A DNA stretch of 64,000 nucleotides from a virus. A program made the position numbers and the translations under genes. The stretch is taken from positions 58,381 through 122,380 of IMG/VR virus record IMGVR_UViG_3300035180_001452, one strand, 5' to 3'. The notes beneath the pieces were generated by a model. That model was not told the origin of the DNA. It ran no database searches and worked only from the letters and a program-made list of their open reading frames with translations. This document shows, piece after piece, positions 37,033 to 40,480 of this stretch. Positions within the stretch are counted from its first letter, which is position 1, and each line of letters begins with the position of its first letter.

Positions 37033-38595
37033 ATGGATGAGCATCTCCCTCCATTCTCACTACGTTGTACGTTGAAGGAGAATGGGATGAAGGCTGTCTT
37101 TGTACAGCAGCCTCGGCTGCTGGAAAGGGTTGGAAACGTGTTCACCGTGCGGGTGGACACGGATATGACGGGGACCGTTCTCCACCAGGTGTCGCATCCG
37201 GAAGAGCAGCCTGTTTTCAGGCTGCTTGGCAGCCGCATTAAAGTACCGGATCTTCGGGCATTCTACATGCCCGAGCGGACACTTTGGAACGCGAATGGTG
37301 TTAGAGGCACTATTCGCGTGGTAGACTTACCGGAACCGCTTCGCATCATCGATTCGGTGATAGGCGATGCGAAGAATGGTAAGAACTCTGCCTTTAGGGC
37401 AGACTCTATGCTCCCGTACATCTCTAGGATGTTGCAAGTCGAGGTGTCCCATACCCAGGTAAATGCGCCTGGGATTATGGGCTTCGCGATGGGAGCTGAC
37501 GGGCAGCTCTCTAGCCGGGAAGTTGCAATATCCTCCAGAATGGCGGTACGGCTTCTTAGGGTCATTTCCACCCTGCACTGGGACTGGGTGGAATGGCTGG
37601 TAAGCCGTACCCCGGAACCTACGGCCACTAGTCTGCAGCTGGTGGCAGCTGCTCTAGCCTCCTCTCGGGAAGTATCAAAGGAGGAACTCGGAGAGGCCAT
37701 ACTGGCCCTTGATGGAGTGTCAGTGATGGCTGTCAGGTACCCGAATGCGTCTTCAACCTCTTACGAGGAAAAGACGCTGAGGGTATATAAACGCTCCCCA
37801 GCTGACTGCATCTTTATCCCTCTGGAGGACCTGGAGATCCGTCACCAGGGGGATTGTGATGGAGACCGAATAGGTCTCCACTTGACACGTGGTCTTCGGA
37901 AAGCCCCCAATCCTCTTGTCTGGGGCCGAACATATCGGACAGGCAAGGGGATCGATCTGGATTCCCTCGCTCTGAGCGAGGAAAAGTCCCCACTCCAGCT
38001 GATGGAAAACTTCTCGGAGAGAGGCCGGTGGGTCGGCCTCTTGACGTACAACTTCTGGCTCCTTGTGTACTCCCTTGCACCGCATGCCTCTTCCATGGGG
38101 CTCTCTGCAGGGGAGCTCTGTCAGAGGTGCCTCGACCTCTTCACACCCCTTATCGAGGGTGTGATGAATGCGAGGAAGGGAACCGGATCTGGGCAGGTGG
38201 GCGGGGAAAGCCTTGCCCAGGCCGTCTGCGACCTCTTTGCAGGTCGCAGGGGGCTTGACGTACTTAACCTCCTTCCTGTCAAGGAGGATGGGGAGGTGGA
38301 TGAGGAGAAGTTCTCTAAGGAACAAATCCGGTGGCTGTATCAGGCACTCAGCCTGATAGCAGTCAACGGGAAGGTTAACGTGTCTAACGCGACCTGCACC
38401 GATCCGGTGAAAGTTGCATTCTCCGCCCGATTCAGGAAAATCGCAACGAAGTTCCTGATCGGGCGAATACCCGAGTCTGCTGACTTCTATACTCGGGTGA
38501 TTAATAGCCTCCTCTGCATGGAGGCTGCACCCTGGAATGGCCCCAAGACGCAGCTTAGGGGCCTCTTTACTGAGGAAGGAATGGAGGGGGAGTAA
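37033..38595 (+). CDS. Divergent two-barrel RNA polymerase, beta'-like catalytic subunit
   Basis: DGQLSSREVAISSRMA, VMAVRYPN (37735) and HQGDCDGDRIGLH (37852-37866) occur in the order and approximate spacing of RpoC ..L..HQCGLPKKMA, LLNR(A/Q)PTLH and NADFDGDQMAVH. Confidence 0.75.
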   Translation: MDEHLPPFSLRCTLKENGMKAVFVQQPRLLERVGNVFTVRVDTDMTGTVLHQVSHPEEQPVFRLLGSRIKVPDLRAFYMPERTLWNANGVRGTIRVVDLPEPLRIIDSVIGDAKNGKNSAFRADSMLPYISRMLQVEVSHTQVNAPGIMGFAMGADGQLSSREVAISSRMAVRLLRVISTLHWDWVEWLVSRTPEPTATSLQLVAAALASSREVSKEELGEAILALDGVSVMAVRYPNASSTSYEEKTLRVYKRSPADCIFIPLEDLEIRHQGDCDGDRIGLHLTRGLRKAPNPLVWGRTYRTGKGIDLDSLALSEEKSPLQLMENFSERGRWVGLLTYNFWLLVYSLAPHASSMGLSAGELCQRCLDLFTPLIEGVMNARKGTGSGQVGGESLAQAVCDLFAGRRGLDVLNLLPVKEDGEVDEEKFSKEQIRWLYQALSLIAVNGKVNVSNATCTDPVKVAFSARFRKIATKFLIGRIPESADFYTRVINSLLCMEAAPWNGPKTQLRGLFTEEGMEGE

Positions 38596-38596
38596 G

Positions 38597-40480
38597 ATGA
38601 CCGAGGAGCTTAACGGTAAACTCGAGTTGGGGCAGGTCTTCCCGTTCCTTGAAGAGAACGGGATCAGCATTCGTCCCGTACAGGATGTTGCCCCGGGCGA
38701 CATCCTGGTGGATTTCAGGGGAGTAACTTTCCCCATCCCCGTCCCTCAGGTTAGACCCCTCGGAGATTTTACATTCTCCGAGGTAGTCTGGACGGGTTCC
38801 CCCAGGAATGATAGCAATGGGAACCTAGTCCAGACCAGGCGAATATTCCACCCGGTCTTGCGGAATACAAATATCCACAAGATTGCGGGTGGTATTAGCA
38901 CTGCCCGCGAAGTTCTTGAGTCCGGGAGGTGGTACGTCTCGGGCTTTTGGAACTTTTACACCGAGGCACTCATGTTTGCCGCTACCAAGGCGGCAACCAT
39001 GCGCTACTTGACTGAGGCATACGCAGCCTCCTTGTTCTATAAGGAGGTTTCTGCTTTCCTCGGCAAGCTCCCGGTTGTGAAGTCCGATCTTCACCTCCTA
39101 TCCCACTCCAGGGTGTGGGAGATGGGATATCCGGGGAAGGACTTTGTGGGAACCTTCCCAGAGATTCCTTCTGCTCTATTAGCAGAAGTCAAGAGAGTCT
39201 TTCACGAGAAGGCTTTGGAGGTCGGATGCGATATCACCTTTACCGGGAAGAGTCATCCCGGTAGGAGGGTGATGTATGCACCGGCTGGCGTCTCTCCAAC
39301 GGCAGCCCAGCTGTGGAGCTGGCCCAACTTCGGTGCTCAGGCGAGGGCACCAAGGGAGATGCTATCCGCGCTCGCTAATGCCGAGGAGTTTGGCAACGAT
39401 CGCCACTCTACTCCTCGCGTGACGAGTGAGAAGAACCGGGTGGACTTTTCCCGGTTCATCAAGCACGTCAATGTCGCACTTATGGACCTTGACGAGATCG
39501 TCCCGGTAAAGAACGGTCGTACATTTAACGCGGATCAAGTCCTTGGAACCGGATGGTCCCATATCGATGGAACTTTCGATACCATCTCCGAGAAGCAGAT
39601 GGTAGTTCCATTCGCAGATGGAGACACCGGAGATTCCATCCGTGAGAAGTACTCATACCTCGGTAAGCTCAACGTTACTCTTAACGTTGAGCCTGAAGGG
39701 ATGTTCTCTGCACTCAGCTGGAACATCTCCTACGAGGAGCACGAACCCAGCAGAATGCTTTGGAAGGCCATGACCCCGGAGGCAGTAAAGGGGATGGTGC
39801 TTCCTGAGCGGCTCCTTCTTCTTGAGCAGCGCCCAGGTGAGGACTTCCTGCGTCCGATCTACCTGGTCATCTCCGCATCTTCTGTCAAGAAGAAGGACGC
39901 GGGACGGATGGTACTTCGGATGCTAGCTTCCCGCCTTCCGGAACCCTACCAGGCCGATACCTCTACCCCACGGGAGGAGTTCGGAAATATCCTCTCCGAC
40001 ATCCGCAACAAGCTTGCTAACACCGGAGATAATGGGTACAGCCGGATCTTTCGATTCCGGCCATCTGTCCCGACCAAGGGTAGCTCCGCTCTTAAAGAGG
40101 TCTTGCTCTCACTAACCTCGGTGAGAGTACTTGGCTTTACTGAGGAGGATGGCCACATTGTGCCAATCCCTGAGGATCAGGTAGGTACCCTTCATGGTGA
40201 CCTTCTCCCAGTGGTGCAGAGTGGAGAGGAATCCCCAGTGGAGACGGTAGTGGGCGAAGTGCCCATCATGCGGATGCCTGAGGACGAGGACTTTGGAGAC
40301 GAGATCAGAACTCCGAAGCGCGGTAATGGCATCCGAGTGGATCCCTTCATGGTAATGGGCAAGCCAGGTCTCGACTGGCCCGTGGACGAGTCGGTGAAGA
40401 CCCGCCTCAACTTCGCGGTACAGCTGTACCGCGCCCTCGCAAAGTCCAATAGCACAGATGATCCCCAAGTCGAAGAGTGA
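38597..40480 (+). CDS. Divergent two-barrel RNA polymerase, beta-like subunit
   Basis: VNVALM...FNADQVL, WKAMTPEAVKGMV (K-x7-K, 39764-39790) and RPIYLVISASSV parallel RpoB NMRVAFM..YNFEDSIL, DKMAGRHGNKGVI and TPVDIVLNPLGV. Confidence 0.6.
   Translation: MTEELNGKLELGQVFPFLEENGISIRPVQDVAPGDILVDFRGVTFPIPVPQVRPLGDFTFSEVVWTGSPRNDSNGNLVQTRRIFHPVLRNTNIHKIAGGISTAREVLESGRWYVSGFWNFYTEALMFAATKAATMRYLTEAYAASLFYKEVSAFLGKLPVVKSDLHLLSHSRVWEMGYPGKDFVGTFPEIPSALLAEVKRVFHEKALEVGCDITFTGKSHPGRRVMYAPAGVSPTAAQLWSWPNFGAQARAPREMLSALANAEEFGNDRHSTPRVTSEKNRVDFSRFIKHVNVALMDLDEIVPVKNGRTFNADQVLGTGWSHIDGTFDTISEKQMVVPFADGDTGDSIREKYSYLGKLNVTLNVEPEGMFSALSWNISYEEHEPSRMLWKAMTPEAVKGMVLPERLLLLEQRPGEDFLRPIYLVISASSVKKKDAGRMVLRMLASRLPEPYQADTSTPREEFGNILSDIRNKLANTGDNGYSRIFRFRPSVPTKGSSALKEVLLSLTSVRVLGFTEEDGHIVPIPEDQVGTLHGDLLPVVQSGEESPVETVVGEVPIMRMPEDEDFGDEIRTPKRGNGIRVDPFMVMGKPGLDWPVDESVKTRLNFAVQLYRALAKSNSTDDPQVEE

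Follow-up and report, generated by a model that had tools for sequence, protein, structure and literature searches.

Two adjacent phage genes that probably encode a very small, very divergent two-subunit RNA polymerase of the two-barrel type

The DNA considered here, which we call the window, is a stretch of 64,000 nucleotides forming the last 64 kb (positions 58,381 to 122,380) of the 122,380-bp IMG/VR virus record IMGVR_UViG_3300035180_001452 (G000), which is estimated to be 79% complete. Its plus strand carries two adjacent open reading frames, ORF1 and ORF2, and we propose on a computational basis that together they are a very small and very divergent two-subunit, two-barrel RNA polymerase (RNAP) of a phage, a reading that we consider probable. 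It draws on the motifs, their conservation, the folds, a predicted interface, fused relatives and gene order, all of which were computed here. The genes and motif codons at the locus, with ORF1 residues numbered on the protein of 520 amino acids (aa), are the following.

37033..38595, plus strand: ORF1, putative beta'-like catalytic subunit, 520 aa (502 aa if translation begins at the ATG at 37087)
37735..37743, plus strand: ORF1 codons for R235-Y-P237, the putative RxP nucleotide-selectivity motif
37849..37866, plus strand: ORF1 codons for G273-D-C-D-G-D278, the putative catalytic Mg-binding DxDGD loop
38597..40480, plus strand: ORF2, putative beta-like subunit, 627 aa
39764..39790, plus strand: ORF2 codons for K390-AMTPEAV-K398, the putative K-x7-K basic motif, which in two-barrel polymerases holds the RNA 3' end

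The open frame of ORF1 spans 37027..38595 on the plus strand and its ATG at 37033 is preceded by GAGGGAGG. An alternative in-frame ATG at 37087 is preceded by the Shine-Dalgarno-like GAAGGAG, and because most ORF1 homologues begin at the ATG matching this one, the true length of ORF1 may be 502 aa. The ATG of ORF2 (38597) lies one base past the TAA of ORF1 (38593-38595), directly behind GGAGGGGGAG, so that the spacer is 1 nt; a preliminary description of this DNA had the second frame starting 2 nt after the stop. As far as sequence can tell, the layout of this junction is typical of translational coupling.

According to the part of PMC7708050 available, the motif forms of RNA polymerases in this superfamily are DxDGD, RxPxLH and two lysines 8 residues apart with an arginine between them, the definition of the RxP motif coming from PMC7708050 together with the available part of PMC2919709. 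ORF1 contains RYP (R235-P237) and then GDCDGD (G273-D278), and ORF2 contains K390 and K398 within WKAMTPEAVKGMV (K390-AMTPEAV-K398-GMV) and then RPIYLVIS at residues 419-426, all located as the preliminary description had them, in frames it gave as 520 and 627 aa. In an alignment of 10 ORF1-family sequences with 34-98% identity (alignment A1), R235, Y236 and P237 show no variation (10/10) and D274, D276, G277 and D278 are equally invariant (10/10), the further invariant columns including N238, A239, S240, H271, Q272, G273 and R279. The same description had drawn attention to a cysteine in the catalytic loop; this is indeed Cys275 in the window, but it is no constant of the family, in which P0004 has Phe at residue 275, P0022 has Asp and P0030 has Tyr. 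The spacing of the two motifs, with R235 lying 39 residues before D274, is close to that in Escherichia coli beta', where R425 of R425-x-P427 lies 35 residues before D460. Translated in six frames, the 64-kb window has a single D.DGD, and there is one occurrence of R.P with D.DGD 30-45 aa further on. Side by side, ORF1 RYPNASSTS...RHQGDCDGDRIGLH parallels E. coli NRAPTLHRLG...AYNADFDGDQMAVH.

For ORF2 the alignment (A3) holds the window protein and 16 of the 22 matches of a profile search; the fused chains P0022 and P0030, the fragments P0024, P0025 and P0028 and the weak match P0032 were left out. Across these 17 sequences (20-88% identity), K390, K398 and G399 are invariant (17/17), and the invariant columns are K218, R250, R253, E254, K390, K398, G399, K433, S445 and G553. 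K-x7-KG has 12 occurrences in the six-frame translation of the window and so is uninformative alone. The E. coli beta equivalent of the motif is K1065-MAGRHGN-K1073-GV, and ORF2 KAMTPEAVKGMVLPE...EDFLRPIYLVIS parallels E. coli KMAGRHGNKGVISK...EDMPY...VDIVLNP.

These motifs bear directly on the question of whether the proteins could instead be a DNA polymerase of the two-barrel kind, equivalent in the phage to the archaeal PolD subunit DP2 and replicating the phage genome. PolD shows that a two-barrel core can become a DNA polymerase (PMC7708050, in the part available), the catalytic core of DP2 likewise consists of two barrels and bears acidic and basic motifs, and profiles of family A, B and C DNA polymerases gave no match either in G000 (79% complete) or in a second, related record, G001 (65% complete). 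The motifs given for PolD in the same part of that paper are NxDGD, GLAPHT and lysines 6 apart (K-x5-K), whereas the window has DCDGD, RYPN and lysines 8 apart, that is, DxDGD rather than NxDGD in the a-motif and RxP rather than PHT in the s-motif, and the PolD forms are absent. A conventional DNA polymerase could, moreover, sit in the missing 21-35% of the two genomes, and no PolD chain is among the best 50 structural matches listed for each model, although such an absence does not exclude a family. Taken with the motifs, this makes a replicative DNA polymerase highly improbable, and we return to the RNA polymerase reading.

The predicted structures resemble known enzymes. That double-psi beta-barrels (DPBB) should appear in the models had been set beforehand as a test, and they are predicted at residues 142-289 of ORF1 and ~287-561 of ORF2. 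The AlphaFold2 (AF2) model of ORF1, with a predicted local distance difference test score (pLDDT) of 72, has a clamp-like N-terminus (~20-136), the barrel (~142-289) and a helical C-terminal part, one helix of which (320-351) is 32 residues long. A Foldseek search of the Protein Data Bank (PDB) with this model returned 378 matches at E<=0.001, of which the best 50 are all multisubunit RNAP entries, the top one being chain d of AR9's non-virion RNAP (nvRNAP; E 7.2e-6); designed and natural DPBB domains align to residues 142-289, and over its whole length the chain matches RNA polymerase beta'/Rpb1 best. The AF2 model of ORF2 (pLDDT 79, predicted template modelling score 0.75) has a beta1/lobe-like N-terminus (~7-165), a barrel with inserts (~287-561) and a C-terminal tail (564-618). 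It gave 369 PDB matches at E<=0.001, of which the best 50 are all multisubunit RNAP, chains B or C; the stretch ~287-561 aligns with minimal, designed and natural DPBB domains, and the chain as a whole matches beta/Rpb2 best. Single-chain two-barrel enzymes score far lower against ORF2 (QDE-1 4.7, RDR2 4.6, crAss gp66 3.9 and P23-45 gp96 3.8). In its model, therefore, ORF2 resembles a shrunken but full-length beta, from a lobe-like N-terminus through the barrel, and not a barrel alone.

The two proteins are also predicted to bind each other. The complex of ORF1 with ORF2 residues 166-627 scored 0.84, compared with 0.00 for the best of 3 controls; of 80 solved complexes 58 attain the mark used for this score, as do 2 of 110 mismatched pairs, benchmark counts that are only rough for the present case since our own alignments served as input. 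The runs share at least 83% of contacts with a partner pLDDT of at least 81. The predicted interface includes the DCDGD loop of ORF1 (273-277) together with the two lysines of ORF2 (390 and 398-400), so that the convergence of the two motifs on one site, as the preliminary description had expected, is borne out in the predicted heterodimer. The ORF2 tail (562-618), which is disordered in the monomer model, belongs to the predicted interface with ORF1.

Independent support for the pairing comes from sequence comparisons of relatives. At 6 of 6 loci (the window, L001/L004, L003, L005, L006 and L007) the split genes are neighbours and ORF1 comes first, which upholds the reversed beta'-then-beta order that had been claimed. 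Two relatives are single chains. P0022 (1185 aa) has an ORF2-like part at 73-645 followed by an ORF1-like part at 659-1116 (BLASTP E 1e-49 for the ORF1 part), and P0034 (1224 aa), from another source, is a second member of its cluster; P0030 (1235 aa, 3 contigs) has the opposite arrangement, with an ORF1-like part at 40-550 (hhalign 99.6%) followed by an ORF2-like part at 753-1093. Fusion in both orders and the kept adjacency of the split genes are, as judged from these sequences, independent support for the pairing of ORF1 with ORF2.

The family appears to be a rare one. Among 5.8 billion proteins, word-seeded searches brought up relatives of ORF1 (9) and of ORF2 (6), and an exhaustive search of 1.84 billion representatives with the ORF2 profile found 22 proteins at E<=0.001, 15 of them at E<=1e-30; none of the relatives found has a Pfam domain or a name beyond 'hypothetical protein', and Pfam searches of the fused and distant relatives and of neighbouring genes gave no polymerase link. 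Viral contigs yielded 1 locus and metagenome contigs 5, one of these on the same contig as the viral locus, and a scan of genome contigs with A1 gave 40 pattern matches and 0 confirmed. P0005 is encoded on a contig that reaches up to 225 kb. No match was obtained by tblastn of ORF1, ORF2, P0022 and P0030 against 50,697 phage records (E<=1e-3 for ORF1 and ORF2), no relative of the family by profile searches of the portal-related phages 0305phi8-36, MTATph1, KLEB27-3, Edson and ME3, no usable match for ORF2 in the ESM Atlas and no published description of the family in the limited library of literature searched. Most likely, ORF1 and ORF2 belong to a rare family that curated databases fail to recognise.

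Among known systems, the cellular beta/beta' core and the non-virion enzymes of AR9/phiKZ come closest. At 1147 aa, ORF1 and ORF2 amount to 42% of the 2749 aa of E. coli beta plus beta', in keeping with the earlier estimate of a polymerase under half the bacterial size, and their order, beta'-like then beta-like, is the reverse of rpoB-rpoC. Unlike in the cellular enzymes, the Pfam signatures of Rpb1 and Rpb2 are not detectable, while the models do show whole-subunit fold likeness to beta and beta'; no alpha or omega homologue was identified with ORF1/ORF2, no test having been aimed at these subunits. In phiKZ/AR9-type enzymes two or more polypeptides make up each of the beta and beta' cognates (PMC7824862, in the part available), whereas here, by comparison with the AR9 and phiKZ nvRNAPs (PDB 7s00, 7ogp), each cognate is one short polypeptide, running from the lobe to the C-terminus in ORF2 and from the clamp to the C-terminal helices in ORF1; the phiKZ/AR9 subunits have no sequence similarity to ORF1 or ORF2 in the tblastn search above. 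YonO (SPbeta), QDE-1/RDR, crAss-like gp66 and P23-45 gp96, several of them phage-borne, are minimal, with little beyond the two barrels. Unlike these single chains, the window has two genes separated by a stop codon and the 1-nt spacer, though its relatives P0022 and P0030 are single-chain. The enzyme had been described as split differently from both YonO/QDE-1 and phiKZ/AR9; this holds for the two genes here but not for the whole family, which also contains chains fused in both orders. By architecture and by the structural scores of the models, ORF1/ORF2 appears to lie outside the YonO/QDE-1 single-chain group, YonO itself not having been compared directly.

A further candidate emerged among viral models. 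The one with the top TM-score to ORF2 (TMq 0.42, E 9.8e-8) is ME3_309, a 798-aa 'hypothetical protein' of Acinetobacter phage ME3, which was matched by length to BFVD entry A0A172Q0S6 (locus L025, KU935715.1 217000-229000). The ME3_309 frame ends ...VRNPS, the ME3_307 frame holds ...HSDVDGDH, and ME3_308 between them in number is a Cys-rich 243-aa frame that resembles an inserted endonuclease gene. ME3_309-ME3_307 looks like an unannotated beta-then-beta' two-barrel polymerase gene, in a cultured phage, broken by a mobile element. We rejected the ME3 protein as a member of the ORF1/ORF2 family, there being no sequence-level link.

Several observations weigh against a polymerase assignment for ORF1 and ORF2. 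Pfam has no match for ORF1 and only an unrelated sub-threshold match for ORF2; PHROGs scans of both returned nothing, as did searches of PDB sequences by phmmer with each ORF and by hmmsearch with the A1 and A3 profiles. Comparison of A1 and A3 with E. coli beta' and beta by hhalign, whole or cut to the barrels, gave probabilities of 0.4-3.9% and only a DFDGD line-up and a plausible first-half-barrel line-up, neither significant; ORF1 IRHQGDCDGDRIGLH is placed on E. coli AAYNADFDGDQMAVH at motif level only, with a probability of 3.9%. No sequence method, then, ties ORF1 or ORF2 to any RNA polymerase. Within the motifs, the xLH part of RxPxLH is absent from ORF1, which has NAS in its place, and the b-motif arginine, an Arg between the two lysines (Tth beta R842) that is termed strictly conserved in the available part of PMC7708050, corresponds to Pro394 in ORF2, where Pro is invariant in the 6 closest sequences and more distant relatives have Pro, Glu, Ala or Ile. 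For the fourth catalytic acid (equivalent to Rpb2 D837) the candidates are E300 and D313, which fall in the predicted interface segments 295-301 and 312-314 of ORF2, and neither is invariant in 17/17. RNAP structures already solved may have shaped the AF2 and ESMFold2 models, and the high score of the complex may likewise reflect the beta-beta' complexes among them. Neither a sigma-70 consensus scan (16 sites against 15.6 expected) nor a check of the repeated element TGCCATAAT discussed below gave a promoter motif assignable to the enzyme. Finally, another polymerase could lie off the contig because the record is only ~79% complete.

With these points in the balance, we put forward the following mechanism. 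ORF1 and ORF2, at ~128 kDa, would be the two catalytic subunits of a miniaturised two-barrel RNA polymerase, made from translationally coupled genes. ORF1 would act as a shrunken beta', in which the DxDGD loop binds the catalytic Mg2+ and the RxP loop faces the sugar of the incoming nucleotide, and ORF2 as a shrunken but full-length beta. The two proteins would pair barrel to barrel, with the C-terminal tail of ORF2 wrapping onto ORF1, and the enzyme would act as a non-virion polymerase, possibly with a 237-aa protein encoded directly upstream as a third subunit or specificity factor. We infer RNA synthesis, a DNA template, the timing of action, promoter use and the role of this third gene. 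Given motifs of the RNA-polymerase type in the genome of a double-stranded DNA tailed phage, the RNA is most likely made from phage DNA, and the caution of the preliminary description that preference for a DNA or RNA template cannot be read from the sequence stands. It is tempting to go further and suppose that ORF1 and ORF2, perhaps with the 237-aa protein only, form a self-sufficient transcription machine of ~130-155 kDa that dispenses with alpha, omega and sigma and keeps the beta lobe, the beta' clamp and the facing barrels; this we regard as possible yet doubtful.

The proteins could also be a two-barrel polymerase that does not transcribe phage DNA, working instead as an RNA-dependent enzyme of the QDE-1/RDR kind or as a primase-like maker of short replication RNAs. 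RNA-dependent members of the superfamily carry the same motifs (PMC2919709, PMC9508822, in the parts available), the lack of a promoter motif for the enzyme would suit such a role, and neither a family A, B or C DNA polymerase nor a dedicated primase was seen on the two partial genomes, so that their replication machinery is unaccounted for. Set beside the RNA-polymerase-type motifs and the double-stranded DNA genome, we consider this unlikely, and a transcriptase of phage DNA is the reading we carry into the genome context. The neighbouring features (window coordinates unless stated otherwise) are these.

17433-19958, minus strand: terminase large subunit with Hint/intein-type domain
G000 27228, 48250, 49359, 83528 and 84181 (the last two being window 25148 and 25801), minus strand: copies of TGCCATAAT
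34787-35467, 35427-36188, 40661-41350, 42308-42811, 43189-43710 and 43761-44465: copies of a paralogous family of 167-253 aa
36291..37004, plus strand: conserved upstream gene, 237 aa; the collection gene call begins at residue 20
40517..40552, plus strand: terminator-like element 3' of ORF2, with a 9-bp G+C-rich hairpin at 40517-40540 and T6 at 40547-40552
52095-54644, plus strand: superfamily 2 (SF2) helicase with Hint/intein-type domain
58000-61476, plus strand: ribonucleotide reductase with Hint/intein-type domain

Genes for the portal, the terminase (with its intein) and tail-type proteins lie on the minus strand arm of G000, and those on the plus strand arm include the helicase and ribonucleotide reductase (both with inteins), RecA and uracil-DNA glycosylase (UDG). 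At 29-37% identity, the portal matches its counterparts in Bacillus phage 0305phi8-36, Moorella phage MTATph1, other Bacillus jumbo phages and Acinetobacter phage ME3. The structural arm of G001 (117,564 bp) is syntenic with that of G000, and the only plus arm genes common to the two records are the 237-aa gene, ORF1 and ORF2, which are consecutive. The 237-aa protein is 37% identical to the product of the gene directly 5' of the ORF1 homologue in G001, and a homologue 77% identical to it (P0036) has as its longest contig one of 7,964 bp, as do the homologues P0002 of ORF1 and P0011 of ORF2. It has no Pfam family; an ARPP-1 score of 0.87 in the ESM Atlas is a lead only, without Pfam confirmation. 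It may be a third subunit or specificity factor.

Neither G000 nor G001, both incomplete, shows a T7-type or canonical beta/beta' gene. Profiles PF00940, PF00623 and PF00562 detected no canonical RNAP in the 122 kb of G000, and PF00623 and PF00562 detect their target in 14/14 control genomes.

Here the position of the genes bears on whether the enzyme might instead be packaged in the virion, to be injected along with the DNA for transcription of early genes, and not made after infection. The phiKZ/AR9-type jumbo phages and crAss-like phages do package two-barrel RNAPs (PMC7598289 and bioRxiv 10.1101/2020.03.07.982082, in the parts available), and only one polymerase set was found on this record. 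The ORF1 and ORF2 genes, however, are in the plus strand non-structural arm and not with the portal, terminase and tail genes of the minus strand, and the host-type terminator-like hairpin that ends the operon would fit transcription of ORF1 and ORF2 by the host enzyme and a non-virion role. This hairpin has a minimum free energy of -24.6 kcal/mol (z -2.15; 7 of 200 shuffles fold equally well) and was not listed by a consensus terminator scan. A virion-packaged enzyme is accordingly very unlikely in our estimation, and we favour a non-virion polymerase. The element TGCCATAAT occurs in 5 copies on the minus strand of G000, upstream of minus strand genes, and in 1 on the plus strand, with ~0.5 per strand expected from length alone; in sequence it looks like a host extended -10 promoter element and it is not conserved in G001.

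The polymerase operon forms the final part of a block of unusual composition, which ends at the hairpin after ORF2. The 14.6 kb of window 25900-40550 have a G+C content of 0.52-0.55 in a genome of 0.41 overall (G001 is 0.515 throughout); the block is limited by a divergent strand switch at ~25.9 kb and by the hairpin at 40.5 kb, with G+C falling from 0.55 to 0.45 past 40 kb. It possibly reflects module exchange between phages of unlike composition, or a constraint of RNA structure. Window DNA is present in sediment and microbial-mat metagenome runs, and contigs of four DNA runs span 24-43 kb at even depth, the high-G+C block included. Among the runs listed as containing 36200-40600 there was no RNA run, which carries no information on expression. 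Among the contigs listed, only those of run X1, possibly the source sample, bridge the 40.5-kb boundary, those of X3 and X4 ending at 40498 and resuming at 40509, a gap that proves nothing. Contigs of X2 and X3 depart from the reference at 39307 and rejoin it at 39623, with 255 unlike letters on either side; this difference inside ORF2 (residues ~237-343) is a population variant or an insertion.

The record also has several repeated features. Between the small genes of an array at window 26369-33665 are 19 copies of GGGCTAACGCCC, all on the plus strand, 5 of which were scored as terminator-like sites too. The paralogous 167-253-aa proteins have the N-terminal pattern W..CP....N.AL.IAR.Y.H.W and are encoded on both sides of the polymerase operon and of the G+C boundary; two copies checked against Pfam gave no family. 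Tandem arrays of 42/126-bp units stand at both ends of G000 in opposite orientation (~40-1760 and window 63526-63927), the right-hand one overlapping an open frame that runs off the window, and they may represent inverted terminal repeats or else result from assembly.

To our knowledge, the two-barrel RNA polymerases described so far are either a large multisubunit core, a jumbo-phage enzyme in four or five pieces or a single chain with little beyond the barrels. We regard ORF1 and ORF2 as a new minimal two-subunit family within the known two-barrel RNA polymerases, a two-piece enzyme that in the models retains an end-to-end recognisable beta and, from beta', the clamp, the barrel and a helical core. 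Were it active, it would show how far the cellular architecture can shrink and still function, would offer a small system for the structure and mechanism of the two-barrel active site, including a natural Arg-to-Pro change in the basic motif, and would add a polymerase missed by annotation pipelines to the routes by which phages escape host transcription. Fusion in both orders bears directly on evolution between split and single-chain two-barrel polymerases. Should the idea of a self-sufficient machine prove true, this would be the smallest heterodimeric cell-type RNAP, a model for a two-subunit ancestor preceding the last universal common ancestor and a new orthogonal transcription tool, and the fusions in both orders would record the interconversion of single-chain and split two-barrel enzymes.

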